Source of the DNA: an uncultured bacterium
Lineage (GTDB): Bacteria; Hydrothermota; E44-bin80
NCBI GenBank assembly: GCA_964392665.1
Contig: CAYMQB010000010.1
Span: 895-64,894 of the forward strand
Length of the DNA: 64,000 nt
Direction of reading: 5' to 3'
Notes under the pieces: generated by a model
The model's database searches: none
Seen by the model: only the letters and a program-made list of their open reading frames with translations
What the model was told of the DNA's origin: nothing
Shown here: piece by piece, positions 11,975 to 33,396 of the stretch
Layout of the letters: the number at the start of each line of letters is the position of its first letter
Numbering within the stretch: the stretch's first letter is position 1
Translations under genes and position numbers: made by a program

Positions 11975-12140
11975 ATAGTCGAAGGAATTTATAACTACTT
12001 TCCTTTTTTGTCAAGAAGTAAATGCTCGAAACGCAGGATTAAATTACCGGAAACACATTCTTTTTGCAAGTATTTTCCCTTGACAATGCACAGAATTTGT
12101 GGTAAAGGAGCAGGAGAAAAGAAGTTGTCTGGAGGTAAGA

Positions 12141-13379
12141 TTGAAAAAAATAATGGTAATTATTTTTGCATTGATTCTTTGTAGTTCGGTTCTTTCATAC
12201 TCGCAGGTTTCCGAAATGAGTAAGGAGTATCTGATTATGCAATCGCTGAGGAATGCTTCTCTTGCACCAGTAACATACACTCTTGGTCCCGGGGACGGAA
12301 TTGTATTGAACCTCTGGGGAAACACCAATGCAACATACAAACTTTCGGTATCACAAGATGGTAGCATATTTATCCCAAAATCATCCGGAGTTACCGCTTC
12401 GGCTATTCCTTTGTCAGCATATTCAGGAATTTCATCCTCTGAAAATGTGCCTTCTCTGGGAGAAGTCTATGCAGAAGGACTAACATTAGAGGAATTGAAA
12501 AAGGAGATTGAAAACAGGGTAAGCAAATATTTTCACGGTGTAAATGTTAATGTCTCGCTAACACGTTTGAGGATGTTTTCTGTTTCCATCCTTGGAAGCG
12601 TGAGGGACCCGGGTGTTTATTCAATAACACCCCTGTATAGATTATCAAACCTGCTTGACGTTGCAGGCGGAAATACGCCAACCGGGTCATACAGAAAAAT
12701 AACAATCAAAAGTGCGGATGGTTCATCAAAAACATACGACCTTTATCAGTTTCTATATAAGGCGAATTTAGAGGAGAATCCTTATATCAAAACTGGTGAT
12801 ATTGTGATGGTTCCACAGGCTCTTATGAGTGTTAAGGTAATGGGAAGGGTTTACAAACGAGGGAACTTTGAATTAAGAGAAGGGGAAAGGTTAAAAGATT
12901 TGATTGAATTTGCAAGAGGATTCCAGAGCAGGGGTTCATTGACAAGGCAAATTAAGGTTTATAACATAAAAAGTCCGGATGAAGTGGAAGAAATCGACCC
13001 GTATAAGCTTCTTATCGAGAATGACAGTTTAAGCAACATAGAGCTCAAAACAGGTGATGTTGTGACGGTTCCAACGGAGCCTTTCACAGTAACCGTTGTA
13101 GGTCAGGTAACTTTAGGCGGAAGTTTTGAATATGAGCCAGGAGCAGATTTTAACTACTACCTTGGTCTTGCCGGTGGTTATGGAGAGCGGGCAAACGAAG
13201 GCAATGTTCGTATAACAAGATGGGATGGAACAAGACTGAAATGGAAGACCGGTGTTGAGATAAAACCTGGCGATACAATAGTTATTGGGAGAGCCGAACT
13301 TAAAGGATGGAAAGATTACTTAGAGGTTACACTGAATGCTGCCAACCTACTCTTTATTATCTGGACCGTCTCAAGGTGA
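12141..13379 (+). CDS. wza: Polysaccharide export protein (Wza/KpsD family, Poly_export + SLBB domains)
   Basis: 'LGPGDGIVLNLWGN' Poly_export motif and repeated 'TGD-V-VP' SLBB-like segments. TTG start at 12141 is proposed because GGAGG lies 5 nt upstream and it yields a clean signal peptide 'LKKIMVIIFALILCSSVLS'; the ORF-track ATG is at 12099. Confidence 0.7.
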   Translation: MKKIMVIIFALILCSSVLSYSQVSEMSKEYLIMQSLRNASLAPVTYTLGPGDGIVLNLWGNTNATYKLSVSQDGSIFIPKSSGVTASAIPLSAYSGISSSENVPSLGEVYAEGLTLEELKKEIENRVSKYFHGVNVNVSLTRLRMFSVSILGSVRDPGVYSITPLYRLSNLLDVAGGNTPTGSYRKITIKSADGSSKTYDLYQFLYKANLEENPYIKTGDIVMVPQALMSVKVMGRVYKRGNFELREGERLKDLIEFARGFQSRGSLTRQIKVYNIKSPDEVEEIDPYKLLIENDSLSNIELKTGDVVTVPTEPFTVTVVGQVTLGGSFEYEPGADFNYYLGLAGGYGERANEGNVRITRWDGTRLKWKTGVEIKPGDTIVIGRAELKGWKDYLEVTLNAANLLFIIWTVSR

Positions 13380-13436
13380 AATCGCGTTTTTGGGAAGACA
13401 AAATTAGCTGCTTTTACACACATAAATCATAATAGT

Positions 13437-14450
13437 TCAGTCCTTTGTGTAGTTCCAGTATTCTTTGATATCTCTGCCAATCAATTCCGACAGTCCTCTA
13501 TTTTCCTTAAAAAAAAGTCTTTCTAAGAATCTTCTTGTTTCAATTTTCATTTTTGGGTATGACTTATTACTTGTGAAGTTAAATTTGCAATCGAGTTTGT
13601 CCATTCTTCTCCAGAACCTATTGGGTTTTGTCTTTGATAAATTGGGAAGATGTGAACCAAATTGTTGAGTAACGAGACGTTGAGTTCGGGAAATATAGTT
13701 ATAAAATATTTGGAGTTTTATGTAGCGGGGAATCATTGTTGCATTTTTATGGGTGTCAATTTTACTTATGTCTATGCTCGTCCTTAATCCAAGAAATTTG
13801 CATATTTCATCGATGTTCTGCTGAGTATTTTTTATGAAGTCTTCGAAGATTATAAATTTCATTTGTGAATCCGGAAAATAGTTTTTGTATCTTTCTATCT
13901 GCTGTTTATAAAGACTTCTTTTTAAGAGAGTTCCAGGCATATATCGAAGTGTGTTTTCAAAATCATAAATTGCATGTCCACCACGGACCAGATGCCAATA
14001 GTTAGAATATGTTCGAGAAACTGGGTTTCTTAACATAAATATAAGCTTTACATTGGGTATCAAATTGGCTATACGAGAAGGAGCTTTTGAAGATGCCATA
14101 TAAGTCGTTGAATCTTCACCTATTAATTGCCCTTTTTTCGCTTCCCTAAAGAATGATTTATACCACTTTAGATATTCTTCGAAATTCGTTTTGTAGTCGA
14201 AAAATTGCCATTCCTTAGATGTTTGAACGAAAAAATCGAAATTTTGCTCAATGTCATCTATGTCAAAAAACATTATTTCTCTATTTGGTATAAAAATGTC
14301 TTTGTGTTGGCTTAGAATGTAGTGAAGAGAAGTTGTTCCCGCTTTCATTGCACCAACAATAATAAAGGCAGGCAACCCTTGCCCATCTTTACCAAGCCTT
14401 CTCCCGTACTTTATATTTTTTTCATTCATACAGAATAAGAATTTACACAA
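13437..14450 (-). CDS. Sulfotransferase-domain protein (PAPS-dependent)
   Basis: 337 aa; 5'-PSB P-loop-like 'FIIVGAMKAGTTSLHYIL', then 'RNPVSRTYSNYWH' (3'-PB region); sits inside a polysaccharide locus. Confidence 0.7.
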   Translation of the reverse strand: MCKFLFCMNEKNIKYGRRLGKDGQGLPAFIIVGAMKAGTTSLHYILSQHKDIFIPNREIMFFDIDDIEQNFDFFVQTSKEWQFFDYKTNFEEYLKWYKSFFREAKKGQLIGEDSTTYMASSKAPSRIANLIPNVKLIFMLRNPVSRTYSNYWHLVRGGHAIYDFENTLRYMPGTLLKRSLYKQQIERYKNYFPDSQMKFIIFEDFIKNTQQNIDEICKFLGLRTSIDISKIDTHKNATMIPRYIKLQIFYNYISRTQRLVTQQFGSHLPNLSKTKPNRFWRRMDKLDCKFNFTSNKSYPKMKIETRRFLERLFFKENRGLSELIGRDIKEYWNYTKD

Positions 14451-14522
14451 AAAAATGCTTTTGTCAAGTTCTATCTTGAAATGTAAGCATGAGCTCTATT
14501 ATACGGTTGTCGCAAAAAGGTC

Positions 14523-14551
14523 TTGACTGCATTGAGTTTATGTGTTACTAT
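14523..14551 (+). promoter_or_regulatory. Sigma-70-like promoter for the wzz-wzy-wzx-GT operon
   Basis: TTGACT at 14523-14528, 17-nt spacer, TACTAT at 14546-14551; followed by a ~170-nt leader. Confidence 0.4.
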
Positions 14552-14654
14552 TTATGCGAGTAAAAATAAGGAGAGATGCGTATAGGCTCGTAAATGTTTG
14601 TGTCATAAATGAATTGAGATTTTCGGTTAAATGTGACACATATGTTGAATCGAG

Positions 14655-14696
14655 CCCGGTTGTTTCCGGGGACCCCAAAACGGGTCTCAGTTTTTT
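14655..14696 (+). promoter_or_regulatory. Leader hairpins and intrinsic-terminator-like structure (candidate attenuator) 25 nt upstream of wzz
   Basis: Hairpin 1 is CCCGG-TTGTTT-CCGGG (14655-14670). Hairpin 2 is GACCC-CAAAAC-GGGTC (14671-14686), followed by TCAG and a T6 run (14691-14696). Hairpin 2 plus the T-run resembles a rho-independent terminator lying between the promoter and the wzz start. Confidence 0.3.
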
Positions 14697-14721
14697 ATCA
14701 AAAAGTTGAGTAGGAGAGAAA

Positions 14722-15960
14722 ATGAAAGATAAAGAAAAATTGGATTTCTGGATATTTCTTGAAACATTTTTTAAGTGGTGGAGAGTCATTGTGTTCAATG
14801 TTTTGATAATAACTCTTTTAACAGTGGTCATAAGTCTTGTGCTGCCAAAGAAGTGGGAGGCAACAACTGTCATTTTACCTCCATCGCTATCTTCGACTTC
14901 TTTGAATGTGGAAGATATAGGTTCTACTTATGCATTAAGTTCGATGGCATTATCTGCTCTGCCTGGCATTATTTCGCCTTCCGATATTGTTGCTGGTGTA
15001 TTACAAAGCGAAACAATTAAGAAGAAAATTATTGACCGTTTTAACCTTATGAAAATTTTTAAGGCAAAGAGACTGGAGACGGCATTCAAGAAAGTTGACA
15101 AAATGACGAGTATTTCGGTTACAAAAGAACAAATGGTAAAAATCAAAGTTACAACAAGCAAGCCTCAGCTTTCAGCCGACATCGCAAATGCATATGTAGA
15201 GGAAATAGATAGATTTAACAGGGATGTGTTGATGACAACAGGTAAGCAATTTAGGGTGTTTCTTGAAAAAAGGCTAAAAGAAGCTGAAGAAGAGTTAAAA
15301 ACTGCCGCAGAATCATTGAAGTCATTTCAAGAAAAAAATAAGGTATTTTCACTTGAGGTTGAAACAAAAAAGTCTATTGAGTTGCTTGGCAGTCTTCAAG
15401 GCCAGATAATTGCAAAAAAGGTGCAACTGAATGCTTTGAAAAGTTACTCATATAAAGGTAATCCTGGAATTGTGAAACTGGAGAAAGATATTTCTGCTCT
15501 GGAGAAACAGTTGAAGGAACTTGAGTACGGAAAAGAGGTAAAAGACAAGAAAAAGAGAAAGGACTTTGGTGTTGGTTTTTCTTTTCCATTGAATGAAGTT
15601 CCAGAGATTGGATTAAAACTAACAAAACTTGAGATGAATATTGAGGTGAAAAAAACAGTATATGCACTCTTGGCAGAACAGTATGAAAAAGCGAGAATTC
15701 TTGAATCAAAAGATACTCCAACAATCACGGTTCTTGACAAAGCACGGGCACCCGAGCTGCGAAATTTCCCTAAAAGAAAAAAAATGGTGGTTATCGCTTT
15801 TATACTGAGTGTATTCTATGGATTTGGACTTGCGGTTGTGTGTGAGGTTTTGGAAAGAATTAAAAGTAGCCATGACAAGTATTATAGATTTTTCTCCATC
15901 GTTGACAAATTTCTCACGGAAATAAGACCAATTTTAAGGAAGTTTAGGATAAAAAAATGA
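14722..15960 (+). CDS. wzz: Polysaccharide chain-length determinant / co-polymerase (Wzz/GumC-like, no kinase domain)
   Basis: 412 aa; N-terminal TM 'WRVIVFNVLIITLLTVVISLVL', long coiled-coil periplasmic region, C-terminal TM 'MVVIAFILSVFYGFGLAVV'. Confidence 0.65.
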   Translation: MKDKEKLDFWIFLETFFKWWRVIVFNVLIITLLTVVISLVLPKKWEATTVILPPSLSSTSLNVEDIGSTYALSSMALSALPGIISPSDIVAGVLQSETIKKKIIDRFNLMKIFKAKRLETAFKKVDKMTSISVTKEQMVKIKVTTSKPQLSADIANAYVEEIDRFNRDVLMTTGKQFRVFLEKRLKEAEEELKTAAESLKSFQEKNKVFSLEVETKKSIELLGSLQGQIIAKKVQLNALKSYSYKGNPGIVKLEKDISALEKQLKELEYGKEVKDKKKRKDFGVGFSFPLNEVPEIGLKLTKLEMNIEVKKTVYALLAEQYEKARILESKDTPTITVLDKARAPELRNFPKRKKMVVIAFILSVFYGFGLAVVCEVLERIKSSHDKYYRFFSIVDKFLTEIRPILRKFRIKK

Positions 15961-17423
15961 AACTGGCTGGATTTTGGAATTTCATTTTTCCCTTTGTCCC
16001 CGATAATAGAAAACAAGTATATTCATTTCTTATCTTCTTTATTATCTGTCTTCAGATATGTGCAATTTCACTGCTTTTTCTCGATATCTCTTTTTCTAAA
16101 TTTCTTTTTGTTGCTGGTTTTCTACCGATTCTTATTCTGCTACTTTCGTCTGCGGAGAATTTCTTTATTTTTATTGTGATATACAGTTTCTGCTTTCACC
16201 TTGATTCTTATGCTCATATCTTCAAAGGAGTTATTTCCGTGAGACTATCGTGGAAAAATCTTTATGCTTTATACGCTATTTTTCTTGTATACTGGATTTT
16301 TTCAATAATTTTACGGAAAACAAAAGTGAGAATTGGAGCTTTAGGTTGGTCAATCATTATTTATGTGAGCATTGCTGTTCTTAGTTTTACTTACGGATTA
16401 TTTAACGGATACTATTCAAGCATGGTGGCTCTACAGAGGAGCGAAATATTCCCTCAACTGATGTACCTTGGTTTTTTTGTCTTTATTACTACCAAATTGA
16501 GGCAGATAAACAGAAAAATAATATTTGATTTTTTCCTTTTCGCTTCAACATTTATCGGTCTGCAACTTATTTATGCGTTTTCTAAGAATAGTATAGCTGC
16601 TTTCACGCGGATTAACACAATTACTGTACAGATATCTTTGCTTGCTTTTCCTTATGTCCTTGGTATCTTCTACTTCACAAAAGGAATTAAGAGGAAAATT
16701 ATCTTTCTAATTGCTTTACTCCCTATATCGTTAGGTGTTCTTATTTCACTCCAGAGGAGTCTTTGGTTAGCGGTTATTGTAGTCTTTGTTGGTTCTCTTT
16801 TTATATACTTTTATAAGAAAGGATTTTCTTTTACCAAAATTGTCGGGCTATTAATTGCAGGAATAATAGGTTCTCTCGTTATGCTTACACTTGCGGTCTG
16901 GGGTTTATCAAGGATTACTTCAGGTGCGGCAGTATTGGTTTTATTAAGACGATTTATAAGCCTTTCGAACATTCAATATCTTCAAGTTGATACTTCTGGT
17001 TTTGTTAGGATGACAGAGATAAGGCAAGCGTTATCGAAAATTCATGGAATTCAATGGTTTTTCGGACGAGGAATAGGGGATACTTTCTATTCTTTTCTTA
17101 GAACAAAGACAAAGACTTATTTCGATAATAGTTATGCGTGGGTGTTGTGGAAGATGGGTATCATCGGATTAATATCATTTCTAAGTATGTTTGTTATATT
17201 CTTTCGGAGAGCACTTTTTGTCCTGAGAAAATGTACTGACAAAAACGATTTAATACATACAATGACAATTTCGTTGAATATGCTTGGAATTATGATTTGT
17301 TCCCTTGGCAATGCTTCTTTGATACAGTTCAGATACATAATTGTCTGGTCAGTTTCAATGGCAATGATGGAAATTATTTACAGAAAATATAAATATGAAA
17401 CTTCTGCTAACCTGCTCAAATGA
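15957..17423 (+). CDS. wzy: O-antigen polymerase / ligase-like polytopic membrane protein (Wzy-type)
   Basis: 488 aa with about 11-12 TM helices and a large loop; lies between wzz and wzx; start overlaps the wzz stop by 4 nt. Confidence 0.5.
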   Translation: MKLAGFWNFIFPFVPDNRKQVYSFLIFFIICLQICAISLLFLDISFSKFLFVAGFLPILILLLSSAENFFIFIVIYSFCFHLDSYAHIFKGVISVRLSWKNLYALYAIFLVYWIFSIILRKTKVRIGALGWSIIIYVSIAVLSFTYGLFNGYYSSMVALQRSEIFPQLMYLGFFVFITTKLRQINRKIIFDFFLFASTFIGLQLIYAFSKNSIAAFTRINTITVQISLLAFPYVLGIFYFTKGIKRKIIFLIALLPISLGVLISLQRSLWLAVIVVFVGSLFIYFYKKGFSFTKIVGLLIAGIIGSLVMLTLAVWGLSRITSGAAVLVLLRRFISLSNIQYLQVDTSGFVRMTEIRQALSKIHGIQWFFGRGIGDTFYSFLRTKTKTYFDNSYAWVLWKMGIIGLISFLSMFVIFFRRALFVLRKCTDKNDLIHTMTISLNMLGIMICSLGNASLIQFRYIIVWSVSMAMMEIIYRKYKYETSANLLK

Positions 17424-18432
17424 ACATCCTGGGGTAAAGACTCATCTTCTTCAACTGAAAAAAGTCTGGGGAAACAATTCTGTTTTTTATCCAGTAGAAG
17501 AACTCGTAACTTTTTATCCCGATTATCGAAAAACGAAAATAAAGGTGCCAAAAGTAAAGAGTCTTCTAAAAACAATATCAAGACTTCGTTTCTCCCGCAA
17601 ATGTTTGGATTTTGGAGATAATATCATTTTAGGAAGCTGGAAAGTTTATTATTCTGAAATCATTAAAAAATTAAATAAACTGGGTATACGACCAAGTATT
17701 TTGTGGTGTAGTACTCTTGGGCAAAGTGAAATGACCTGGAAGGCTGAACTCGAGCCGCTTAACAAGATATTTGAGCTGTTAAAAAAGGGAGCCATACGTT
17801 ACTTGCTTGTTCCAGAAAAAACATACGAGTCATTGCGATTCATCAATAATGTTGAATATCTTCCGCATCCTCTTGATTTATCTACACCTTTGAAATTCAA
17901 GGAAATCAATCTCTGGGGGAAAAATATTGACCTTTTCATGGAAGCCAGACCAGGGAAAAATGTTCTTCAGCAGTTGGCAGCACAAAAATACACGAAATCA
18001 GCTTTTCGTTTACATACTAACATAAGAAATGACACAGTTCTCAGTATTGCGCGGAAACTCAATCTTTCGTTTATTCAATATCCTTGGTTAGCGGAAAAGG
18101 AATACTATGGATTAATAAAAGCAATGGATTTAAGTTTGCAGGTAACCTGGACAGAAAGTTTTAACTATGCAGTTTGTGAGAGAATGATTCTTGGAATCCC
18201 AACGCTTGTTTCCTCTGAAATATTTCTTGTTAGCAAAGACGCTTTTCTTAAAAAATATCTTGTTGTTAAAACTCCTGATTCTCCCAGTGTAATCGCAAAA
18301 AAGATAGACTTTCTTTTTCACAATCAAAGCTTAAGAGCGGAAATTAAGCATCGGGGGAAAGAAAGAGTCAAAACTATTGGGAGAAGATATAACAGGATGG
18401 TCAGAGATCAGATAAAAATCCTTTTTAGTTAA
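17395..18432 (+). CDS. Divergent glycosyltransferase-like protein (degenerate GT4/GT1 C-terminal domain)
   Basis: 345 aa; C-terminal 'ESFNYAVCERMILGIPTLVS' aligns with the Glycos_transf_1 'EGFGLV-LEAMA-G-PVIAT' motif; N-terminal half unrecognisable. Confidence 0.3.
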   Translation: MKLLLTCSNEHPGVKTHLLQLKKVWGNNSVFYPVEELVTFYPDYRKTKIKVPKVKSLLKTISRLRFSRKCLDFGDNIILGSWKVYYSEIIKKLNKLGIRPSILWCSTLGQSEMTWKAELEPLNKIFELLKKGAIRYLLVPEKTYESLRFINNVEYLPHPLDLSTPLKFKEINLWGKNIDLFMEARPGKNVLQQLAAQKYTKSAFRLHTNIRNDTVLSIARKLNLSFIQYPWLAEKEYYGLIKAMDLSLQVTWTESFNYAVCERMILGIPTLVSSEIFLVSKDAFLKKYLVVKTPDSPSVIAKKIDFLFHNQSLRAEIKHRGKERVKTIGRRYNRMVRDQIKILFS

Positions 18433-18434
18433 TT

Positions 18435-19889
18435 ATGTATACGGAAATTAAAAAATTAGTAAAACATTCAAGCATATATTCTTTTGGGAGTTTAAGTGGA
18501 CACATTCTCTCGTTTCTTTTGTTACCGGTATATACAAGATTGCTCACGACAGAAGAGTATGGAATTCTTGCAATAATAGGAGTGTTCCGCACAATTGTTC
18601 AAAGAGTAGTAAATCTAGGGACTCAGTCTTCGGTTGTCAAAGTATATTTTGAAGTGGACAACACAGAAAAGAGGAAAGAAGTCACCTCAACTGCTTTTAT
18701 TTTCCTCACAGTTATTGCGGGTATTTTTACACTTTGGTTCTGGCTTTTCAGGGAGAAATTATCAATATTTTTGCTTGATTCACCGCATTTTAGTTTTCTA
18801 TTCTCTTTCGCTCTCATTACATCGTTCTTTTATATAATTAAAACTGTTCCTCTTTCAGTTTTTCGTGCTCAGGGACGAGCATTCACCTACACAATATTTG
18901 CTTTTCTCACGCTTGTTTTGGGACTTTTATTCAATATTATTTTTGTAATTATCTTCCGCGAAAATGTAACAGGGATACTCAAAAGCTCTTTACTCAGTCA
19001 CGTCATAGTTTTTGTACTGGTTCTCATTCCTTTTTGGAAGAACTTTGTGTTTAAGTTCAAAAAAGAATATTTGTCACGAATGTTGAGTTTTGGTTTGCCA
19101 ATAGTTCCGTCAGGCCTTGCTATCTGGATATTGACGCTACTCGACAGATATTTTCTTAAAGTCTTTGCTGATATGGAAACAGTTGGTATTTATTCACTTG
19201 GGTATAAAATAGCAACAATAATGAGTATGCTGGTTATTGTCCCATTCTCAATGGCATGGAGTCCACTTATGCTAAGATGGTATAAGCAGAAAAAGGCGAA
19301 AGAACTCTTTACTAAAACATTTAAGTATTTTTCAGTTTTTGGATTTTTCCTTGTTCTTGCAATTTCACTTTTTTCAAAAGATATTATTCATGTTATGACA
19401 ACACCAGCTTTTTTTGATGCATATAAAATTGTATATTTTATAACTCTTGCTTATCTTTTTCAGGGATTCTATATGATATTTACTACAGGGTGTACTTTCG
19501 TAAGGAAGACCTATTATTTCCCTATTGCCACAGGAGTGGCTGCCGGATTGAACACAATTTTAAACATACTGTTAATTCCAAAATATCAAATGATAGGAGC
19601 CGCAGTTGCGACTGTATTTTCCTATTTGGTTATGACTATACTTATGTATTTATTTTCTGAAAAATATTACCACATTCCGTTTGAATTCAACATTAGCCTA
19701 AAAATTTTCTTTGTTACGACAGTTCTTTATATTGCCGGATTATTCATTGGAGGCAAACTTGTGACTATTGTTGTTATTAAGCTCATGCTTCTTGTTGGTT
19801 TTTTTGTGTTTCTTTTCTTATTCAAGGTTTTTAACAATCAAGAAATTGCTTATGCAAAGGCGTTTTTGAGAAAGAGGAAAAGCGTATGA
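18435..19889 (+). CDS. wzx: Polysaccharide flippase (Wzx, MOP superfamily)
   Basis: 484 aa with 12-14 TM helices; N-terminus 'SIYSFGSLSGHILSFLLLPVYTRLLTTEEYG' is typical of Polysacc_synt/Wzx. Confidence 0.7.
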   Translation: MYTEIKKLVKHSSIYSFGSLSGHILSFLLLPVYTRLLTTEEYGILAIIGVFRTIVQRVVNLGTQSSVVKVYFEVDNTEKRKEVTSTAFIFLTVIAGIFTLWFWLFREKLSIFLLDSPHFSFLFSFALITSFFYIIKTVPLSVFRAQGRAFTYTIFAFLTLVLGLLFNIIFVIIFRENVTGILKSSLLSHVIVFVLVLIPFWKNFVFKFKKEYLSRMLSFGLPIVPSGLAIWILTLLDRYFLKVFADMETVGIYSLGYKIATIMSMLVIVPFSMAWSPLMLRWYKQKKAKELFTKTFKYFSVFGFFLVLAISLFSKDIIHVMTTPAFFDAYKIVYFITLAYLFQGFYMIFTTGCTFVRKTYYFPIATGVAAGLNTILNILLIPKYQMIGAAVATVFSYLVMTILMYLFSEKYYHIPFEFNISLKIFFVTTVLYIAGLFIGGKLVTIVVIKLMLLVGFFVFLFLFKVFNNQEIAYAKAFLRKRKSV

Positions 19890-21232: not shown

Positions 21233-22104
21233 CAATGTTATCCGTAGTTGTTGTAAATTGGAATACGAGAAACATCCTCTTTAAATGTTTACAGTTGTTA
21301 GAAAAAGAAAGGGTTGATGAAATCATAGTAGTTGATAACGCTTCCTCTGATGGTAGTGTGATGATGTTAAAGGATCACTTCGAGGGAATTCATGTTATTG
21401 AGAACAAGAAGAATGTTGGTTTTGCCAAAGCAGCAAATGTGGGAATCAGATATTCCTCGGGCAACTTGATCTTGCTAATCAATTCTGATATATTTGTTAA
21501 AAAGGGTGCGATTGAGCAGATAAAGAGATTCATGGAAAACAATATGGATGTAGAAATTTCTTCTCCTTTGTTATATTCGGAAGATGGGGAGGAAATTGAA
21601 AACCACCGCCCTATTCCAAACTTGACATATATGTTGTTGAATTACTCATTTGCGTTACGACTTTTCCCTTTTTTGATTGTGTTTGTTCCAAAATACCTAC
21701 AGGGGGCTGCATTGGTTTTTAGAAAAACGTTTTTTAAGAAAGTTGGCTTGTTAGACGAAAGATTTTTCTTCTACGCAGAGGATGTGGATTTATGCCTTCG
21801 AACGAAAAAAAAAGGATTAAAAATAGGTATCATACCAACGGCAAAAGCAGTTCACCTTTGTGGTGGTAGTTCAAAAAGAGTGTCAAAAGAAAAGTACTAT
21901 CTCAAGAATATTGAATCGAATCTGCAATTGTTTGAGAAATATTATCCTAAATTAGTAAATTTCTTTATTAAAAAACTTATTATAACCCATTTTGCTATTA
22001 GAAACATTTTCAATTCCTTCATCTCACTTTCATATGTAGATGGAAAGGAGATAGAAAAAAAGATGTGTTTCTACAGACAAATAATGGATATATGCAGAAA
22101 ATAA
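21229..22104 (+). CDS. Glycosyltransferase family 2
   Basis: 291 aa; 'LSVVVVNWNT...VVDNASSDGS' GT2 signature, DxD-like 'NSDIF', 'YAEDVDLCLR'. Confidence 0.75.
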   Translation: MTMLSVVVVNWNTRNILFKCLQLLEKERVDEIIVVDNASSDGSVMMLKDHFEGIHVIENKKNVGFAKAANVGIRYSSGNLILLINSDIFVKKGAIEQIKRFMENNMDVEISSPLLYSEDGEEIENHRPIPNLTYMLLNYSFALRLFPFLIVFVPKYLQGAALVFRKTFFKKVGLLDERFFFYAEDVDLCLRTKKKGLKIGIIPTAKAVHLCGGSSKRVSKEKYYLKNIESNLQLFEKYYPKLVNFFIKKLIITHFAIRNIFNSFISLSYVDGKEIEKKMCFYRQIMDICRK

Positions 22105-23252: not shown

Positions 23253-23303
23253 TATTTTGTTTCAAAGGGATTGCAAGGTTAGTGGAATATTGTTAACAAG
23301 ATC

Positions 23304-24590: not shown

Positions 24591-24650
24591 ACCTGTGCAA
24601 TTTTAACACAAAAATATAATGAAATCAGACTATTAAAGTGGAAAGATGCT

Positions 24651-25853: not shown

Positions 25854-26820
25854 GAGGTATTTAAATAACAGTAGAACAAGGGTTTTGGTGACAGGGGCTG
25901 CAGGTTTCATAGGTTCTCATCTCTGCGAAAAACTGTTAAAAAAAGGACACAAGGTACTAGGAATAGATTGTTTTACGGATTTTTATCCGAAGGCAATAAA
26001 GACAAGAAACTTGCAGACTTGCCTAAAAAACCCAAATTTTGAATTTCGTGAAACTGATATATTGAGTTTGACCTCTATTGATAAAGATATTGGATATATA
26101 TTTCATACTGCTGCCCAAGCGGGCGTAAGAGCAAGTTGGGGGGGGAATTTTGATATCTATACAAGAAATAATATCCTTGCTACTCAGCATCTCCTTGAAT
26201 TATCCAAAAACCATAAAAAGGTTAAGAAAATCATTTATTCTTCATCTTCATCAGTCTATGGTGATGCAAAAATATTGCCTACAAAAGAAGATACTGTGCC
26301 TAAGCCTGTTTCTCCTTATGGAGTTACAAAACTTGCTGGTGAACATCTGTGTCGCCTGTACAATAAAAACTTTGGTGTTCCCGTTGTTTGTCTCAGATAT
26401 TTTACAGTTTTTGGACCACGACAGAGACCGGATATGGCTTTTTACAAATTTATAAAATCCGCAATTAACGGTAAACCCATAATTATTTATGGGGATGGCA
26501 GACAATCGAGGGATTTTACTTATGTTTCGGATGTCGTAGCAGCAAATATTCTTGCAATGCAAAAGGACACTGAAGATACCATTTTTAATATCGGAGGAGG
26601 TAATTATGTGACAGTTAATGAGACGATAGAACTCCTTGGAAAATTGTTGAAATTACCTGTCAATGTTAAGTATAAAGAAAAAGAAAAAGGTGATGTAAGA
26701 GATACAAGTGCAGATATTAACAGGGCAAAACGAGAACTGGGGTTTAATCCAAAATACGATTTGAACTATGGTTTGGAAAAGGAATTAGAATGGATAAAAA
26801 AAATATATAACATATCCTAA
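25846..26820 (+). CDS. NAD-dependent epimerase/dehydratase (extended SDR; UDP-sugar 4-epimerase / WbpP-like)
   Basis: 324 aa; Rossmann 'VLVTGAAGFIGSHLCEKLL', catalytic 'SPYGVTKLAGE' (YxxxK); contains a G8 homopolymer at 26138-26145. Confidence 0.75.
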   Translation: MVKRYLNNSRTRVLVTGAAGFIGSHLCEKLLKKGHKVLGIDCFTDFYPKAIKTRNLQTCLKNPNFEFRETDILSLTSIDKDIGYIFHTAAQAGVRASWGGNFDIYTRNNILATQHLLELSKNHKKVKKIIYSSSSSVYGDAKILPTKEDTVPKPVSPYGVTKLAGEHLCRLYNKNFGVPVVCLRYFTVFGPRQRPDMAFYKFIKSAINGKPIIIYGDGRQSRDFTYVSDVVAANILAMQKDTEDTIFNIGGGNYVTVNETIELLGKLLKLPVNVKYKEKEKGDVRDTSADINRAKRELGFNPKYDLNYGLEKELEWIKKIYNIS

Positions 26821-26839
26821 GCTTTGAATTGTTTTCAAA

Positions 26840-28003
26840 ATGAACAAAAAAAAGATAAATGTTATTCATATAATAACTGAGTTAGCCATTGGTGGGGCAA
26901 CCGAAAATACCATAATTACTGCTTCTTCTTTGAATAGAAGAAAATTCAATACTATTATTGTCTCTGGGAAAGAAGAACAAAATGACGATCTTGTAAAACG
27001 TGTTAAGCAGGAGGAAATCCCATATTTTGTTAATAAAAACCTTTGCAGGTTAATAAATCCGGCAAGGGATTTACTATGTTTATTGACGCTTACCAAATTT
27101 ATCAGGGAACACAAAGGGATTGTTGTCCATACACATAGTTCAAAAGCAGGTATCATTGGTAGGATAGCAGCATTTTTGGCCGGGAGCACAATTATTATCC
27201 ATACAGTTCACGGGTGGAGTTTTCATCAATATTGGAAGAGATGGGAAATGTATATTTTTATTCTTTTAGAAAGATTTGTAGCACGATTTACCGATAGGAT
27301 TGTGTGCGTTACCACAATGGATATTCTTAAAGGATTAGCAAGCAATATTGGAAGAATTAATCAATATGGTGTGATTCGCAGTGGATTTGATATTAAGAAA
27401 TTCCAGGGTAACAAAGATACTACAGACAAAATGAAGAAACAATTTGATTTTCCCTTGAATCAAAGGATTGTGGGAACAGTTGGAAGATTATCACAACAAA
27501 AAGATCCTGAAACATTTGTTAACGTAGCGCACTTGGTAAGTAAGATAAGGAAAGATGTGATATTTGTTTTTGTTGGAGAAGGAGAGTTGCGGAAAAAGAC
27601 AGATAATCTGATACAACATCTCAAAATGGAGAAATATATCTATCTTCTGGGTGCACAGAAGAATGTTGAAAAGATTTTTCCACTCTTCGATGTATTTCTT
27701 CTAACATCATTATGGGAAGGTTTACCAAAAGTTATTCCACAGGCTATGGCATCGGGTATACCAATAGTTTCTACTGCAGTCGATGGTGTTAAAGAAGTGA
27801 TTAAAAATGAAACAAATGGTTATCTTTCAAAACCCGGAGATGCTGAATCTCTTGCAGAAAATGTAATTAAACTACTTAACGATAAAGAGAAATCCAGACG
27901 ATTTGTATACAACTCAAAACGCTTAATAAAACAGTTTGACTCTAAATTAATGGTAAAACAGATTGAAAGAACTTACAGTGATTTAATTAGCAAGAAAACA
28001 TAA
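26840..28003 (+). CDS. Glycosyltransferase family 4
   Basis: 387 aa; 'INVIHIITELAIGGATE' and 'EGLPKVIPQAMASGIPIVSTAVDGVKEVI'. Confidence 0.7.
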   Translation: MNKKKINVIHIITELAIGGATENTIITASSLNRRKFNTIIVSGKEEQNDDLVKRVKQEEIPYFVNKNLCRLINPARDLLCLLTLTKFIREHKGIVVHTHSSKAGIIGRIAAFLAGSTIIIHTVHGWSFHQYWKRWEMYIFILLERFVARFTDRIVCVTTMDILKGLASNIGRINQYGVIRSGFDIKKFQGNKDTTDKMKKQFDFPLNQRIVGTVGRLSQQKDPETFVNVAHLVSKIRKDVIFVFVGEGELRKKTDNLIQHLKMEKYIYLLGAQKNVEKIFPLFDVFLLTSLWEGLPKVIPQAMASGIPIVSTAVDGVKEVIKNETNGYLSKPGDAESLAENVIKLLNDKEKSRRFVYNSKRLIKQFDSKLMVKQIERTYSDLISKKT

Positions 28004-28009
28004 GCAATA

Positions 28010-28433
28010 ATGAATAAACCTATTATTCTTGTTGTTGGGGCAAGACCCAATTTTGTTAAGGCTTCTCCTCTCTTCAACGCAATGAGAGAAAGAAAGATAA
28101 ATACTATTCTAATTCATACGGGTCAACATTATGATTATGAATTGTCCAAAACATTCTTTGAGGATTTTAGCCTGGGTAAACCCGACATAAATCTTGAGGT
28201 GAGTTCTGGAAATCATGGTGAACAGACAGGTAGGACTCCGGAGTTACGATAGAAGAATGCCAGAAGAGATAAACCGTGTGCTTACAGATGCTATTGCGGA
28301 TTATTTATTTACGCCTTCGTTGAATGCGAATGAAAATCTTAAGAAAGAAGGTATTGCGGATGAACAAATCTTTTTTGTAGGGAACATTATGATAGATTCG
28401 CTGGTAAAACATCTACCGCTTATGTGGACATAA
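28010..28433 (+). pseudogene. Decayed UDP-N-acetylglucosamine 2-epimerase (wecB-like) remnant: N-terminal ~150 aa only, internally deleted and frameshifted
   Basis: Two short ORFs, 28010-28252 and 28215-28433. The first, 'ILVVGARPNFVKASPL...IHTGQHYDYELSKTFF...NLEVSSGNHGEQTG', matches the WecB N-terminus. The second, 'LRSYDRRMPEEINRVLTD', matches WecB at about residues 125-180. About 45 aa between them are missing and the whole C-terminal domain is absent; ~55% identical to the intact convergent wecB. Confidence 0.6.
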
Positions 28434-29585
28434 GTATTTAAGAATGTTCTGTGCTGTCTGACCGTCACCGTATAAAAATCGGGACATGTATTTTGGGACT
28501 GGGGATGAATGCAATGCAACCCTAACTATGTTTTTTCTATTAGTCCCCACGATAACATTATTACCACTTTTTACCGTTTCTATCCATTCAGTTTCATTTC
28601 GTAAAGTTATGCAAGGAACACCTAAGAAATATGCTTCTTTCTGTATTCCACCTGAGTCTGTCAAAATTTTTCTTGCATTTTTCTCAAGTGTTAACATATC
28701 AAAATAGCTGACTGGATCAATCAAGTGTATGTTAGCATAATTTGATGGTAAGAGATTAAAGTTCTTTAAGGTTTTTTTCGTTCTCGGGTGAACTGGAAAG
28801 ACTACAGGATAACATTTACCGATTTCAATCAAGGCATCAAGAATATTCTTTAATTTTCTTTTATTGTCAGTGTTTTCAGCCCTGTGAATAGTTACTAAAA
28901 AATATTGTTTGCTGATTCTTTTAAGTTGTTTCAAAATGTCCGATTTTTTTTCCGCAATTTTCAGACTTATCAGCGTAGCATCATACATAATATCACCAAC
29001 ATTTACAACAACTGGAAATTTGTTGTAGCACATTTGTGATGTTGAGAAAGAAGGATTAATCAGTTTTCCGTCATTTATTATGTTAGTATAACCTTCTTTC
29101 TTTAAATTCTTCACACCGTTCTCTGTGGGACAGAAAAGAATATCCGAGCAATGGTCGGTAAGTATTCGATTTATCTCTTCCGGCATTTTTCTATTATAAC
29201 TTCGTAAGCCAGCTTCTATATGTACTATTGGAATTTGTAGTTTTACAGCTGCCAAGGCACCTGCTAATGTTGAATTTGTGTCACCATATACTATTGTAAG
29301 AGCGGGTTTTTCTTTCATCAAGATTGGTTCCAGTCGTTTTATCATTTCACCTGTCTGCCAACCATGAAACCCGGAACCTACTTCAAGATTATATTCGGGT
29401 TCTGGAATATCAAGTTCGGTAAAAAAGATTTTATTCATTTCATAGTCATAATGCTGACCCGTATGAATTATAATATGATTTACTTTAGGTTTTTTATTAC
29501 TGTTCTTTTGTCCCCTAATTGCTTGCACCAAAGGAGCAAGTTTAATAAATTGAGGACGTGCACCAACAACACTTATTAGTTTCAT
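28413..29585 (-). CDS. wecB: UDP-N-acetylglucosamine (or UDP-2,3-diacetamido-2,3-dideoxy-glucuronate) 2-epimerase, WecB/WbpI family
   Basis: 390 aa full-length Epimerase_2: 'VVGARPQFIKLAPL', 'HTGQHYDYEMNKIFF', 'LRSYNRKMPEEINRILTD', 'VHPRT'; last gene of the wbpE-wbpB/D unit. Confidence 0.8.
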   Translation of the reverse strand: MKLISVVGARPQFIKLAPLVQAIRGQKNSNKKPKVNHIIIHTGQHYDYEMNKIFFTELDIPEPEYNLEVGSGFHGWQTGEMIKRLEPILMKEKPALTIVYGDTNSTLAGALAAVKLQIPIVHIEAGLRSYNRKMPEEINRILTDHCSDILFCPTENGVKNLKKEGYTNIINDGKLINPSFSTSQMCYNKFPVVVNVGDIMYDATLISLKIAEKKSDILKQLKRISKQYFLVTIHRAENTDNKRKLKNILDALIEIGKCYPVVFPVHPRTKKTLKNFNLLPSNYANIHLIDPVSYFDMLTLEKNARKILTDSGGIQKEAYFLGVPCITLRNETEWIETVKSGNNVIVGTNRKNIVRVALHSSPVPKYMSRFLYGDGQTAQNILKYLCPHKR

Positions 29586-29676
29586 ATAATTGTTATCACG
29601 CCATTCAGGTCAAGTGGATTGTTTTCCTTTTTCAACATCAAATGAGGGGTATTGTTGAAGTAAGTGTTGTGAGAGA

Positions 29677-31311
29677 CTAATTTATTTGCTTCACAACATC
29701 AGCCTTTTTTTGATATTGCCTTGAACATTTTGGGCAAGTTGCTTTGTTTTTACTGAATTTTAATTTTGTGCCGCATTCACATATCCAGCCAATGGGTTTG
29801 GCAGGGACCCCTGCGACTATGGTGTAATCGGGAACATCTTTTGTAACAACAGCACCAGCACCAATCATAGCCGACTTTCCTATAATTATCCCGCAGACGA
29901 TTGTTGCGTTTGCACCAATTGATGCACCTTGCTTAACTGAGGTTGGTATCCATTTCCCATATTTCGGATACTTTTTCTTGGGATACTTTGCACGGGGATT
30001 AATATCGTTGGTAAAAACAGCAGATGGTCCTACAAAAACATAGTCTTCAAGAGTAACTAAGTCCCAGACATCTATGTTGCATTCCAATTTAACTCCGTTA
30101 CCAAGTTTTGCCTTGGAGCCAACAAAGCAGTTATGACCAATTATGCAATTTTCTCCAATCTCTGCACCTGATTGAATTTGAGAATGATGCCATATCTTGG
30201 TCCCTCTGCCAATTGTGCAATTATCCTCCACAGAAGCAGATTTCTGAACGAAATAGGGTATTTCTGCGTGTGGATTTCGGATTACGGGTTGTGAATGCAG
30301 GATAACTTTTTCTCCAGAATTGTTGAGGGATTGTTGTGCTGCAGAAAGAATCTCAAGAACTTGAAGGCCTTCGTAACCATCAGTTATTGGGATTTCCTTG
30401 TTTTGAATACAATCCAGAAAATGTTTACATTCGAGTTTGAGAGGTTCGGAGAATTTAATGGGGATTGTTTCAGCATCAGCCTTAGAAACGACAGGGATAC
30501 GATTCTGCCACTCAATTGTATGTGGATACAAGAAGAGTTTTTCGTTGGTTAAATCATCGAAAACAGCCATTTTCTTATCACCTACTACTACAAGTTTTTG
30601 CTCCTTAAATGGATGAAGCCAGGATACAAAAATGTGGCTTTTAACACCATTAGAGAACTGCATCGAGGTTAGAGTTACATCTGCAATGTCGTGTTGCAGA
30701 TAATTGCCACCGGTGGCACTGACAGTTTCCGGAGATTCACCTAAAAGAAATAGAATTGTAGATATATCGTGTGGTGCAAAGCTCCAGAGAATGTTTTCTT
30801 CAGCTCTTATTTTCCCTATATTTAAACGATTTGAGTAAATATATTGGATTTTACCGAGTTCTCCTGAGTCAATCAGTTCTTTAAGTTTATTAATTGCAGG
30901 ATGATAACGTAAAATGTGGCCTACCATCAGAATACTTTTTTCCCCCTCTGCCAGGAATATTAGGTCTTTTGCTTCTTCAATATTTAATGCGAGGGGTTTT
31001 TCTACATAGACATTTTTATTTGCAGATAGTGCTTGCTTGGCTATTTCGTAGTGAGTTGCAGCTGGGGTAGCGATAACTATTCCTTTAATCTCAGGATCTT
31101 TTAGCACATCTTTATATGTTTCAGTAAAATGTATATCTGGATACTGAGATTTACGAGTTCTTAAGGTTGCTTTATCTGAATCACAGACAGTTTTTAAGAC
31201 ACCAAGTTCACTAAAATTGCGGACGAGATTCTTTCCCCAGCCTCCTGCCCCTACTACAGCAATATTAAGGCATTTCGGATTGCGGATTGCGGATTGCGGA
31301 TTTTTATCCAT
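29677..31311 (-). CDS. Bifunctional fusion: Gfo/Idh/MocA NAD-oxidoreductase (WbpB/GnnA-like) + hexapeptide-repeat N-acetyltransferase (WbpD/PglD-like) + C-terminal Cys4 zinc ribbon
   Basis: 544 aa. N-terminal 'LNIAVVGAGGWGKNLVRNF...YVEKPLALNIEEA' (Gfo/Idh/MocA); C-terminal left-handed beta-helix 'IGENCIIGHNCFVGSKAKLGNGVKLE...IGANATIVCGIIIGKSAMIGAGAVV'; the final 40 aa 'WICECGTKLKFSKNKATCPKCSRQY' form a CxxC...CxxC ribbon. Confidence 0.7.
   Translation of the reverse strand: MDKNPQSAIRNPKCLNIAVVGAGGWGKNLVRNFSELGVLKTVCDSDKATLRTRKSQYPDIHFTETYKDVLKDPEIKGIVIATPAATHYEIAKQALSANKNVYVEKPLALNIEEAKDLIFLAEGEKSILMVGHILRYHPAINKLKELIDSGELGKIQYIYSNRLNIGKIRAEENILWSFAPHDISTILFLLGESPETVSATGGNYLQHDIADVTLTSMQFSNGVKSHIFVSWLHPFKEQKLVVVGDKKMAVFDDLTNEKLFLYPHTIEWQNRIPVVSKADAETIPIKFSEPLKLECKHFLDCIQNKEIPITDGYEGLQVLEILSAAQQSLNNSGEKVILHSQPVIRNPHAEIPYFVQKSASVEDNCTIGRGTKIWHHSQIQSGAEIGENCIIGHNCFVGSKAKLGNGVKLECNIDVWDLVTLEDYVFVGPSAVFTNDINPRAKYPKKKYPKYGKWIPTSVKQGASIGANATIVCGIIIGKSAMIGAGAVVTKDVPDYTIVAGVPAKPIGWICECGTKLKFSKNKATCPKCSRQYQKKADVVKQIN
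31276..31300 (-). repeat. Heptanucleotide tandem repeat (CGGATTG x 3.6) within codons 5-12 of the wbpB/D fusion ORF
   Basis: Plus strand reads cGGATTGcGGATTGcGGATTGcGGA; on the coding strand this is AATCCGC x3, encoding 'PQSAIRN'; the unit length is 7, not a multiple of 3. Confidence 0.85.
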
Positions 31312-31322
31312 AAAAGCACTCC

Positions 31323-32423
31323 TTACTTTTCAAAAAATTCTCGAATTGTTATAATGACATACTCTATTTCTTCGTCTGCTAAATCAGGATGAATCGGTAA
31401 TGAGAGGACCTCTTTTGCAGCTTTTTCAGACTCTGGAAAATCACCTTCTTTGTAACCAAGATAATCAAATGCCTTTTGAAGGTGCAAAGGTATAGGATAA
31501 TGAATTGCAGTTCCTATATTCTTTTCAGTCAAATACTGTTTCAGTTCATCCCTTCTGGATGTTCTTATTGTATACTGGTGATAAACAGTTTCATTCCCAG
31601 GTGTTATATACGGAACTTCAACGCTATCTTTTAGTCCCTCATCATATTTAAGAGCAGTCTCTCGTCTTTTCTTGTTCCATTCATCTAAGTATTTTAACTT
31701 AATCCGCAAGAAGGTAGCTTGAATAGCATCAAGACGGTCATTATAGCCAAGAACATCGTGATAATACTTTTTTGACGCTCCATGCACTCGTAGAGCGCGT
31801 AATTTATTATCCAAAAATTCGTTGTTTGTTACAATCATTCCAGCATCTCCCAAAGCATTCAGATTTTTGGTGGGGAAAAAACTTATGCAAGCAGTATCAC
31901 CGAATTTTCCAATATTCTCTCCGTTATACTTTGAGCCTATTGCCTGTGCCATATCTTCTACAACTTTTAGATTGTTTTCTTTGGCAATTTTCATAATCTT
32001 GTCCATATCAGCTGCTTGCCCGTATAAATGTACAGGTAAAATTGCTTTTGTTTTCTCGGAAATAAGCGGGGTAATTTTGTCGGGACTGATGTTGAAAGTT
32101 TTAGGTTCAATATCACAGAAGATTGGCTTTGCCCCAAGCAATGCAATAACTTCGGCAGTGGCCATAAAAGTAAACGGGCTTGTTATAACTTCATCGCCAG
32201 AGTGGACGCCCAATGCTGCCAGAGACAATAGTAAAGCATCTGTCCCATTTGATACGCCAATTGCGTATTCAGTGCCAATATACGAGGCAACTTCGTGCTC
32301 AAAGTTCTTGACCTCATCTCCAAGAATAAATTGCCCGCTGTCTAATACCTTTTCAAATGCATTCATCAGTTCTTTTTTTATGGGCTTATGTTGACGCTGT
32401 AAATCTATAAACGGTACTTTCAT
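31323..32423 (-). CDS. DegT/DnrJ/EryC1/StrS-family PLP-dependent sugar aminotransferase (WbpE/GnnB-like)
   Basis: 366 aa; 'FIDLQRQHKPIKKELMNAFEKVLDSGQFILGDEV', 'AIGVSNGTDALLL'; the active-site lysine region lies in the 'SFFPTKNLNALGDAGMI' segment. Confidence 0.8.
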   Translation of the reverse strand: MKVPFIDLQRQHKPIKKELMNAFEKVLDSGQFILGDEVKNFEHEVASYIGTEYAIGVSNGTDALLLSLAALGVHSGDEVITSPFTFMATAEVIALLGAKPIFCDIEPKTFNISPDKITPLISEKTKAILPVHLYGQAADMDKIMKIAKENNLKVVEDMAQAIGSKYNGENIGKFGDTACISFFPTKNLNALGDAGMIVTNNEFLDNKLRALRVHGASKKYYHDVLGYNDRLDAIQATFLRIKLKYLDEWNKKRRETALKYDEGLKDSVEVPYITPGNETVYHQYTIRTSRRDELKQYLTEKNIGTAIHYPIPLHLQKAFDYLGYKEGDFPESEKAAKEVLSLPIHPDLADEEIEYVIITIREFFEK

Positions 32424-33379: not shown

Positions 33380-33396
33380 ATGTTTCGGTATTGGGG

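Follow-up and report, generated by a model that had tools for sequence, protein, structure and literature searches.

Hypervariable polysaccharide loci between conserved flanks are familiar from galF-gnd in E. coli and dexB-aliA in pneumococci, and a sulfated exopolysaccharide (EPS) is made in cyanobacteria by the synechan xss cluster, a Wzx/Wzy-type locus with a sulfotransferase of the 3'-phosphoadenosine-5'-phosphosulfate (PAPS) type. Group-1 capsule and colanic acid systems (Wza-Wzb-Wzc) combine a Wza-family exporter and a co-polymerase with Wzx, Wzy and many glycosyltransferases. In the B-band wbp locus of Pseudomonas aeruginosa O5 and the wlb locus of Bordetella, a C-3 aminotransferase, a 3-N-acetyltransferase and a WbpI-type 2-epimerase are part of a Wzx/Wzy locus (PMC10622841). 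Here, a locus sharing features with each of these systems is described from a 64,000-nucleotide stretch of DNA of an uncultured bacterium (GTDB lineage Hydrothermota, E44-bin80; contig CAYMQB010000010.1, positions 895 to 64,894). The whole stretch is referred to as the window, and positions are counted from its first letter. Sequence comparisons indicate, with a probability that we put at about 0.8, that positions 12099-32423 hold an ordinary, well-preserved locus, resident at its site, which makes, sulfates and exports a surface polysaccharide of the capsule or EPS type.

Open reading frames (ORFs) were listed, and Pfam scans of all window ORFs of at least 120 aa, together with NCBIfam models, gave family calls for all 17 features of the locus. 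The genes for assembly and export lie on the plus strand. They begin with wza (12099-13379), which encodes an outer-membrane polysaccharide export (OPX) protein (SLBB 3.8e-22, Poly_export 2e-15, SLBB_2 5e-15) with one N-terminal hydrophobic segment, a signal or an anchor according to topology prediction. Further downstream, wzz (14722-15960; Pfam Wzz and GNVR) encodes a co-polymerase without a kinase domain, which has two transmembrane segments (residues 22-40 and 356-374) and a short tail. It is followed by a putative wzy polymerase gene (15957-17423), whose product matches Wzy_C weakly (3.6e-5; 24 bits against a cut-off of 31.7 bits), has about ten transmembrane segments and a large loop (313-396), and sits between wzz and wzx in all related loci. 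The wzx flippase gene (18435-19889) was readily assigned (Polysacc_synt 7.7e-25; 88 bits against a cut-off of 28 bits), its product having 12 predicted transmembrane segments. The predicted topologies of Wzx, Wzy and Wzz, as well as that of the sulfotransferase described below, fit their assigned roles. The locus thus shares with group-1 systems its exporter, co-polymerase, Wzx, a putative Wzy and many glycosyltransferases, whereas its co-polymerase lacks a kinase domain, its priming transferase would lie outside the locus, and neither a Wzb phosphatase nor a separate tyrosine kinase was found in the Pfam and NCBIfam scans of the locus.

Between wzy and wzx lies a divergent, lineage-restricted gene (17395-18432, +), called GT-like below, whose product matches Glycos_transf_1 only with a score below the Pfam cut-off and found no match in a sequence search of the Protein Data Bank (PDB). 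A search of 5.8 billion clusters returned only 43 homologues. Its AlphaFold2 model (mean predicted local distance difference test score of 92.6) was compared with known folds by Foldseek, the top matches being the GT4 enzymes 6eji (PglH), BshA, PimA and MshA (probability 1.00, TM-score 0.6-0.7). In addition, Glu254 and Glu262 are invariant in 41 sequences, with the spacing of the GT4 EX7E motif. As judged from the modelled fold, and confirmed by these two residues, the gene product is a GT4 glycosyltransferase with a GT-B fold. The last gene of this conserved series, GT4a (19886-21232, +), encodes a further glycosyltransferase (Glycos_transf_1 7e-30).

The locus is bordered on the left by two Na+/H+ exchangers (9082-10290 and 10754-11974) and on the right by pcrB and alaS (32639-35958, minus strand; Pfam PcrB and tRNA-synt_2c), a conserved anchor outside the pathway. 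A preliminary description of this DNA, made from the letters and their translations, had proposed a Wzx/Wzy-type locus with a sulfotransferase between antiporters and pcrB/alaS. In the ORF listing and Pfam scans, every gene of its list was found again at its place and on its strand, both flanks were confirmed, the sulfotransferase was assigned to the PAPS type by its Pfam and PDB matches, and the type of locus is borne out by its OPX exporter and its chain-length protein.

The classical trio of O-antigen assembly likewise consists of Wzx, Wzy and a Wzz without a kinase domain, and the Wbp/Wlb sugar, for which a module is found here, is best known from O-antigens and lipopolysaccharide (LPS) (PMC10622841). 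The product might accordingly be an O-antigen, assembled by this trio and attached to lipid A-core by a WaaL ligase encoded elsewhere. No WaaL was found in the window, the sole Wzy_C-like protein being in the position of the polymerase. O-antigen export does not require a Wza-type exporter, yet such an exporter heads the locus and is kept in all relatives. An O-antigen is therefore considered unlikely, and a capsule or EPS-type polymer is preferred.

The sulfotransferase gene (13437-14450, minus strand) occupies the first of two variable slots, between wza and wzz. Its product scores above the Pfam cut-offs for both Sulfotransfer_3 (1.5e-20) and Sulfotransfer_1 (1.9e-18), and in the PDB it is closest to 3rnl (2e-27), with heparan-sulfate 3-O- and N-sulfotransferases next. 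The segments GAMKAGTTSL and RNPVSRTYS align with 3rnl, and we take them to be the 5'-phosphosulfate-binding (5'-PSB) and 3'-phosphate-binding (3'-PB) motifs for PAPS. No transmembrane segment was predicted in this protein and, since it appears to be soluble, sulfation would take place on the cytoplasmic side. It is 85% identical to its counterpart in the nearest relative. While synechan also depends on a sulfotransferase of the PAPS type in a Wzx/Wzy-type locus, its xss cluster belongs to a different phylum and has a different gene set, the enzyme described here being nearest to 3rnl and to the heparan-sulfate enzymes.

The second variable slot, downstream of GT4a, contains on the plus strand a GT2 glycosyltransferase (21229-22104; Glycos_transf_2 2e-22), GT4b (22065-23252) and GT4c (23304-24590), both with Pfam GT4/GT1 domains, GT4d (24651-25853; Glycos_transf_1 8e-40), a short-chain dehydrogenase/reductase (SDR; 25846-26820) and GT4e (26840-28003; Glycos_transf_1 6e-37). 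NCBIfam gave no donor or acceptor specificity for any glycosyltransferase of the locus; GT4c had no NCBIfam match, and every match of GT4d was under the cut-off of its model. The SDR matches 6zl6 and 6zla in the PDB (1.6e-86), the former presumably being the UDP-glucuronate (UDP-GlcA) 4-epimerase of Bacillus cereus, and then MoeE5 (1e-63), and it scores under the NCBIfam cut-offs for GalE and TviC. Its resemblance to UDP-glucuronate 4-epimerase points to galacturonate in the polymer, with UDP-glucuronate supplied from outside the locus.

The residence of the locus at its site is supported by comparison with relatives, which were sampled at graded PcrB identity: L031 (86%), L034 and L035 (78%), and L036 and L037 (72%; a metagenome-assembled genome (MAG) of Cloacimonadota). 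Among PcrB homologues, those with 71-72% identity belong to MAGs labelled as Cloacimonadota or as candidate division WOR-3. At each of these three levels of identity, alaS-pcrB is followed by a polysaccharide locus whose content differs each time, and down to about 70% identity of alanyl-tRNA synthetase (AlaRS) the pcrB-alaS site of relatives is likewise occupied by a polysaccharide locus. The nearest relative (relative A), with an AlaRS 85% identical, has its polysaccharide locus between the same flanks; its left half, L038, is one of two loci with Wza from a metagenome scan and shows the same left flank and the order wza-sulfotransferase-wzz-wzy-GT-like-wzx-GT4a. A backbone of wza, slot 1, wzz-wzy-GT-like-wzx-GT4a and slot 2 is kept in L038, L040 and L041. 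The preliminary description had expected different cassettes between conserved flanks, and this is what is seen among these relatives. A PcrB scan of a genome collection yielded distant relatives only (at most 50% identity). In two distant alaS-pcrB genomes, no polysaccharide-gene matches were found beyond pcrB, on the side away from alaS, and they are uninformative for cassette replacement.

The backbone genes are 53-78% identical in relatives with about 70% AlaRS identity, and have diverged roughly in step with the core genes. The identity of wzz is 93% to relative A and 73-78% to L040 and L041, and that of wzy is 88% to the nearest relative, both genes following genome relatedness. For wzx the corresponding figures are 65% to the nearest relative and 67-69% to distant relatives. 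The orthologue of GT4a in the same position is 65% identical in relative A and 55% identical in both L040 and L041. Within slot 2, GT2 and GT4b are 48% and 40% identical to their counterparts in relative A, in which no orthologue of GT4c, the SDR, GT4e or the wecB pseudogene described below was found; a copy of the SDR with 65% identity is present in L036/L040.

The DNA identity profile against the nearest relative is consistent with these values. Sliding identity is 82-97% at 12.7-17.8 kb, falls sharply inside the GT-like gene to 61-76% at 17.8-21.4 kb, is followed by a segment without detectable similarity (21.4-28.45 kb), and rises again to 85-97% at 28.5-31.3 kb, with wbpE, pcrB and alaS at 74-88%. 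This profile places recombination breakpoints near 17.8 and 28.45 kb, so that only the central part of about 10.6 kb (17800-28450), from the 3' part of the GT-like gene through the wecB pseudogene, has been exchanged relative to the nearest relative. At the other end of the locus, identity is about 62% over the first 600 bp or so of wza (12099-12700; 12.1-12.7 kb in the profile) and about 90% over the rest of the gene, which looks like a second, small mosaic patch in the N-terminal part of the exporter.

The content of the two slots varies with the relative. Slot 1 holds a sulfatase-family gene and a methyltransferase in L040 (4811-6789 of that locus) and a GT2 gene in L041. In L040, slot 2 is occupied by an unrelated sulfotransferase of 289 aa (18610-19479) and SDRs; in L041 it holds a protein resembling D-glucuronyl C5-epimerase (PF06662; 17596-18552). 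Together with the heparan-sulfate-like sulfotransferase of the window, these modifying enzymes of the relatives hint at glycosaminoglycan-like chemistry in this lineage. The locus shares with the serotype-type loci of cultured bacteria a fixed site, low GC, conserved ends, a replaceable central block of glycosyltransferases and pseudogene relics at a junction; as compared with the galF-gnd and dexB-aliA type, Wzy, GT-like and GT4a are conserved here and variation is confined to the two slots.

The right-hand junction of the exchanged segment is marked by a wecB-type UDP-N-acetylglucosamine (UDP-GlcNAc) 2-epimerase remnant (28010-28440, +), located between convergent operons, which includes an Epimerase_2 fragment of 80 aa (28010-28252). 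It matches family residues 3-79 in one frame and 120-168 in the next; about 130 bp are deleted internally, and the C-terminal half is missing. Its nucleotide identity to an intact wecB of 376 aa, which adjoins pcrB in L034 and L035 and retains the canonical TERP arginine, is 83-93%. As read from these features, the remnant, listed as such from the letters, is a true pseudogene. It forms, with the 5' coding part of the intact epimerase gene downstream, an inverted repeat of 62 nt (28098-28159 and 29421-29482; 81% complementary), the one notable inverted repeat in the repeat scan, at which inversion or deletion might occur between the paralogues.

Composition raises a different possibility, namely that the whole block of about 20 kb is a recently acquired genomic island; horizontal acquisition had been favored in the preliminary description. 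Its impression of an AT-rich locus was correct: GC is 35.5% in 12099-32423 and 39.6% elsewhere in the window, the per-gene values are 0.354 versus 0.392 (Mann-Whitney p = 1e-4), and GC at third codon positions (GC3) is 0.311 versus 0.368 (p = 3e-5), that is, 4 points for GC and 5.7 points for GC3 under the flanks. Gene content, as seen above, also varies among relatives between conserved flanks. The codon-usage part of the proposed composition check fared less well, the distance from flank genes being only marginally higher in the locus (p = 0.06), and it was thus not used as evidence. The GC of wza (41.1%) is flank-like. Moreover, the loci of the relatives all lie 2.5-6 GC points under their own flanks, so that low GC does not date an acquisition. 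No tRNA and no Rfam match were found at the locus, no integrase or transposase domain in any window ORF of at least 120 aa, and no flanking direct repeats beyond short ones at chance level. Both flanks recur in the nearest relative, whose end modules are orthologous (82-97% identity at the DNA level), and the backbone genes have their counterparts, at the identities given above, in relatives with about 70% AlaRS identity. A recently imported island of about 20 kb is therefore highly improbable; the claim gives way to a locus found at the same site in relatives with 86, 78 and 72% PcrB identity, of which only about 17.8-28.45 kb was exchanged. Because site, backbone and low GC are shared with relatives and mobility signs were not found, the locus is best read, at the level of sequence, as a hypervariable locus that has long been resident and undergoes exchange within the lineage.

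The remaining genes of the locus, on the minus strand, form a three-gene operon convergent to the plus-strand genes. A scan for promoters and terminators over 13000-32700 gave counts at the shuffled expectation (69 versus 68, and 12 versus 12.5), and no operon boundaries were thus inferred from it. The first enzyme, a full-length Epimerase_2 protein (28413-29585, -), has as its closest solved relative the UDP-GlcNAc3NAcA 2-epimerase of Thermus thermophilus (8sxv, E = 9e-115) and also passes the broad NCBIfam wecB model. The Thermus enzyme has been biochemically verified to act on UDP-GlcNAc3NAcA and differs from UDP-GlcNAc 2-epimerases by Trp307 in place of Arg, Tyr96 in place of His/Gln and Ala18 in place of Leu/Met (PMC10622841). 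These residues were compared with the epimerase of the window and with the canonical wecB of L034. The window enzyme has the Trp (ETEW in place of Arg) and the Tyr (VYGD), and Leu16 at the position of Ala18, hence two of the three signature residues, while the wecB of L034 has Arg (TERP) and Phe at the positions of the Trp and the Tyr. The enzyme thus largely conforms to the WbpI type.

The next gene (29677-31311, -) encodes a 544-aa fusion of an N-terminal GFO_IDH_MocA dehydrogenase and a C-terminal Hexapep acetyltransferase (Pfam). Residues 356-533 match WlbB best (3mqg; 2e-49, 172 bits, the next matches reaching 131 bits), and this half is, by homology, a left-handed beta-helix 3-N-acetyltransferase of the WlbB/WbpD type. 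For residues 1-340, the best solved relatives are 3c1a (3e-29) and then 7bvj (2.5e-21), which a source citing it gives as the UDP-GlcNAc 3-dehydrogenase GnnA. The top NCBIfam model is that of the archaeal UDP-GlcNAc 3-dehydrogenase (UDP-GlcNAcDh_Arch; 1e-53), whose cut-off of 450 bits makes the domain, at 183 bits, a relative and not a member of that family. None of the 60 PDB matches listed for the domain, down to E = 1.9e-8, is a chain labelled WbpB or WlbA. As far as sequence relationships go, this half is not of the WbpB/WlbA type and is nearest to GnnA and the archaeal enzymes, so that C-3 oxidation most likely starts from UDP-GlcNAc. Its best characterized relatives are GnnA, of the Acidithiobacillus route to the GlcN3N of lipid A, and MMP0352 of Methanococcus maripaludis, whose identity as the UDP-GlcNAc 3-dehydrogenase of an archaeal acetamido-sugar pathway was checked. 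Here, in contrast to both, the domain shares a polypeptide with an N-acetyltransferase and has a 2-epimerase as its partner. A role in lipid A synthesis of the GnnA/GnnB kind was considered for the module and rejected on these grounds, which point to a diacetamido sugar for the polymer.

The fusion is widespread, being full-length in the best 120 of at least 8000 scored homologues, all at E <= 1e-30; these 120 come from WOR-3, Cloacimonas, Syntrophobacterales, Thermodesulfobacteriota, Scalindua and Pseudomonadota. An identical protein is encoded on Joint Genome Institute (JGI) metagenome contigs that match the window in gene order, and no biochemical characterization of a GnnA-like/WlbB-like fusion was found in the literature. 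The third gene (31323-32423, -) encodes a pyridoxal-phosphate-dependent sugar C-3 aminotransferase (DegT_DnrJ_EryC1 5e-126). Its PDB matches are 7b0d (1.5e-117), QdtB (1.6e-110), DesV (7e-90) and, over the full length, WbpE (2e-89) and, since 7b0d and QdtB are closer than WbpE, the enzyme is assigned to the C-3 aminotransferase group (WbpE/QdtB/DesV) and not strictly to WbpE.

The preliminary description had read these genes as WbpE, WbpB, WbpD and WbpI in a pathway to a UDP-2,3-diacetamido-2,3-dideoxy sugar. PDB matches uphold the aminotransferase, the acetyltransferase and, largely, the epimerase, and the module of four activities is supported as a whole; the WbpB assignment does not stand, the dehydrogenase being of the GnnA/archaeal type, in view of which the reservations then made in favor of a non-uronic analogue and a GnnA/GnnB route were apt. 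The absence of a WbpA-type 6-dehydrogenase, also noted then, was confirmed: no UDP-sugar 6-dehydrogenase (UDPG_MGDP_dh family) was found in window ORFs of at least 120 aa. As all sizeable ORFs were scanned and the largest unassigned gap is 1.1 kb, the window can be said to lack this enzyme, and none was found in the related loci examined. Compared with wbp and wlb, the locus thus has no WbpA in the window, a 3-dehydrogenase of another type and a dehydrogenase fused to the acetyltransferase, and it has in addition Wza, a sulfotransferase and an SDR resembling UDP-GlcA 4-epimerase.

The module might then stop at a non-uronic sugar, UDP-GlcNAc3NAc or UDP-ManNAc3NAc, as would be consistent with a dehydrogenase nearest to UDP-GlcNAc 3-dehydrogenases instead of WbpB/WlbA, with the lack of a 6-dehydrogenase in the window and in the related loci examined, and with Leu16 of the epimerase, a residue found in enzymes acting on sugars with a 6-hydroxyl. 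This epimerase is, however, closest (about 1e-114) to an enzyme with a uronic substrate, whose Tyr and Trp it keeps, and the adjacent SDR implies a supply of UDP-uronate from outside the locus. Furthermore, in the archaeal (Methanococcus) route that Namboori and Graham are said to have described in 2008, a 3-dehydrogenase of the same type acts first and 6-oxidation reportedly takes place afterwards. A non-uronic end product is possible on this evidence, with the odds clearly against it.

Several observations weigh against the reading of the locus as a complete polysaccharide pathway with the roles given above. Enzyme roles and substrates were assigned by homology, and the putative polymerase has a Pfam score under the cut-off. 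In contrast to a classical group-1 capsule locus, Wza and Wzz have neither a tyrosine kinase nor a phosphatase beside them. The pathway is incomplete as seen, because the window has no priming transferase, 6-dehydrogenase or PAPS-synthesis genes. For the priming phosphoglycosyl transferase, no Bac_transf or Glycos_transf_4 (MraY-like) match was found in window ORFs of at least 120 aa, and it is likewise missing from the gene tables of the related loci examined; another part of the genome may encode it. The oxidation state of the epimerase substrate at C-6 is uncertain, because Leu16 stands where the Thermus enzyme has Ala18. Finally, the wbp module is dispensable in some relatives, as it is decayed in L034/L035 and absent from the locus in L036/L040. 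In L034 (10791-14600) and L035 (10791-14770), a deletion of about 850 bp removes the dehydrogenase domain and leaves an acetyltransferase ORF of 203 aa, and only 63 residues are left of the WbpI-type epimerase in these two loci (78% PcrB identity).

Based on knowledge of the enzyme families, the following mechanism is proposed. The dehydrogenase domain of the fusion would oxidize C-3, with UDP-GlcNAc as the most likely substrate, the DegT enzyme would aminate this position and the WlbB-like domain of the same fusion would N-acetylate the new amino group, yielding a UDP-2,3-diacetamido-2,3-dideoxy sugar, of which the WbpI-type enzyme would then epimerize C-2. Oxidation of C-6 to the uronic acid, if any, would be left to a later enzyme encoded elsewhere, and the SDR resembling UDP-glucuronate 4-epimerase probably supplies UDP-galacturonate (UDP-GalA). 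Up to seven glycosyltransferases would build the repeat unit on undecaprenyl phosphate, after priming by a transferase not encoded in the window, and the soluble PAPS-type sulfotransferase would sulfate the unit on the cytoplasmic side, before Wzx flips it, Wzy polymerizes it under the control of Wzz, and Wza exports the polymer. The comparison of loci shows that the locus is old at its site, its central part of about 10.6 kb having arrived by recombination within the lineage and having left the wecB pseudogene at the junction.

Other genes of the window also relate to the cell envelope or to signalling. The product of pcrB (32639-33379, -) is an archaeal-type (hepta/geranylgeranyl)glyceryl phosphate synthase, whose best matches in the genome collection (44-50%) are from Bacteroidota MAGs and archaea (Aenigmatarchaeota, Bathyarchaeia), with closer homologues in Cloacimonadota and WOR-3 MAGs. 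Its presence fits the proposal that bacteria of the Fibrobacteres-Chlorobi-Bacteroidetes (FCB) group such as Cloacimonetes are able to synthesize ether lipids of the archaeal type (PMC7852524). A diguanylate cyclase with three GAF domains (3110-5128, +) and a CdaA-type diadenylate cyclase (47914-48660, +) place genes of c-di-GMP and c-di-AMP signalling near the polysaccharide locus. A protein of 840 aa (49265-51787, +) contains a TMEM260-like protein O-mannosyltransferase domain followed by tetratricopeptide (TPR) repeats, which suggests protein O-glycosylation in this bacterium. An extracytoplasmic function (ECF) sigma factor, a zf-HC2 anti-sigma factor and an HtrA-like trypsin/PDZ protease are encoded in a row (51885-54116, +), an arrangement typical of an envelope-stress module. 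A TonB-dependent receptor gene (58261-61290, -) lies between large unannotated genes.

Two window proteins carry C-terminal sorting domains (CTD) for type IX secretion (T9SS; 38238-39653 and 61290-63776, both on the minus strand); the length of the former varies among relatives (307, 464 and 274 aa). Together with the PcrB homologues from Cloacimonadota and WOR-3 MAGs, these domains mark the host as an uncultured member of the FCB group. In Porphyromonas gingivalis and Tannerella forsythia, the products of WbpA/B/E/D form the linking sugar for T9SS cargo (PMC7468200), and this precedent raises the question whether the polymer, or its Wbp-type sugar, anchors such cargo here, in the manner of the A-LPS/Wbp/Vim sugar. 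The P. gingivalis system (PMC7468200) shares with this locus an FCB-group host, T9SS cargo and Wbp-type enzymes. Nevertheless, neither vimA/vimE-like genes nor genes of the T9SS attachment complex were found in the window, and the module, dispensable in relatives, is decayed or absent at the locus in relatives where CTD proteins are still encoded close by. A link between the locus and secretion is possible but unsupported, and such an anchoring role is improbable. Also improbable is a broader scheme, in which a fixed chassis (Wza, Wzz, Wzy, the lineage-specific GT4, Wzx and GT4a) with swapped decoration modules would yield glycosaminoglycan-like sulfated acidic polymers, possibly anchoring T9SS cargo via a Wbp-type sugar. 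The modules in question would be the sulfotransferase, the uronate 4-epimerase and the diacetamido-sugar operon in the window, and the C5-epimerase-like, sulfatase-family and methyltransferase genes in the relatives.

While current concepts are unchanged by these findings, they provide a first annotated picture of a surface-polysaccharide locus in an uncultured sediment lineage. The locus behaves like the serotype-variable loci of cultured bacteria, its site being fixed, its chassis conserved and its slots exchangeable, and it points to a sulfated, acidic polymer containing a diacetamido sugar. With the very common GnnA-like/WlbB-like fusion, a single protein would offer a convenient way to 3-acetamido sugars.

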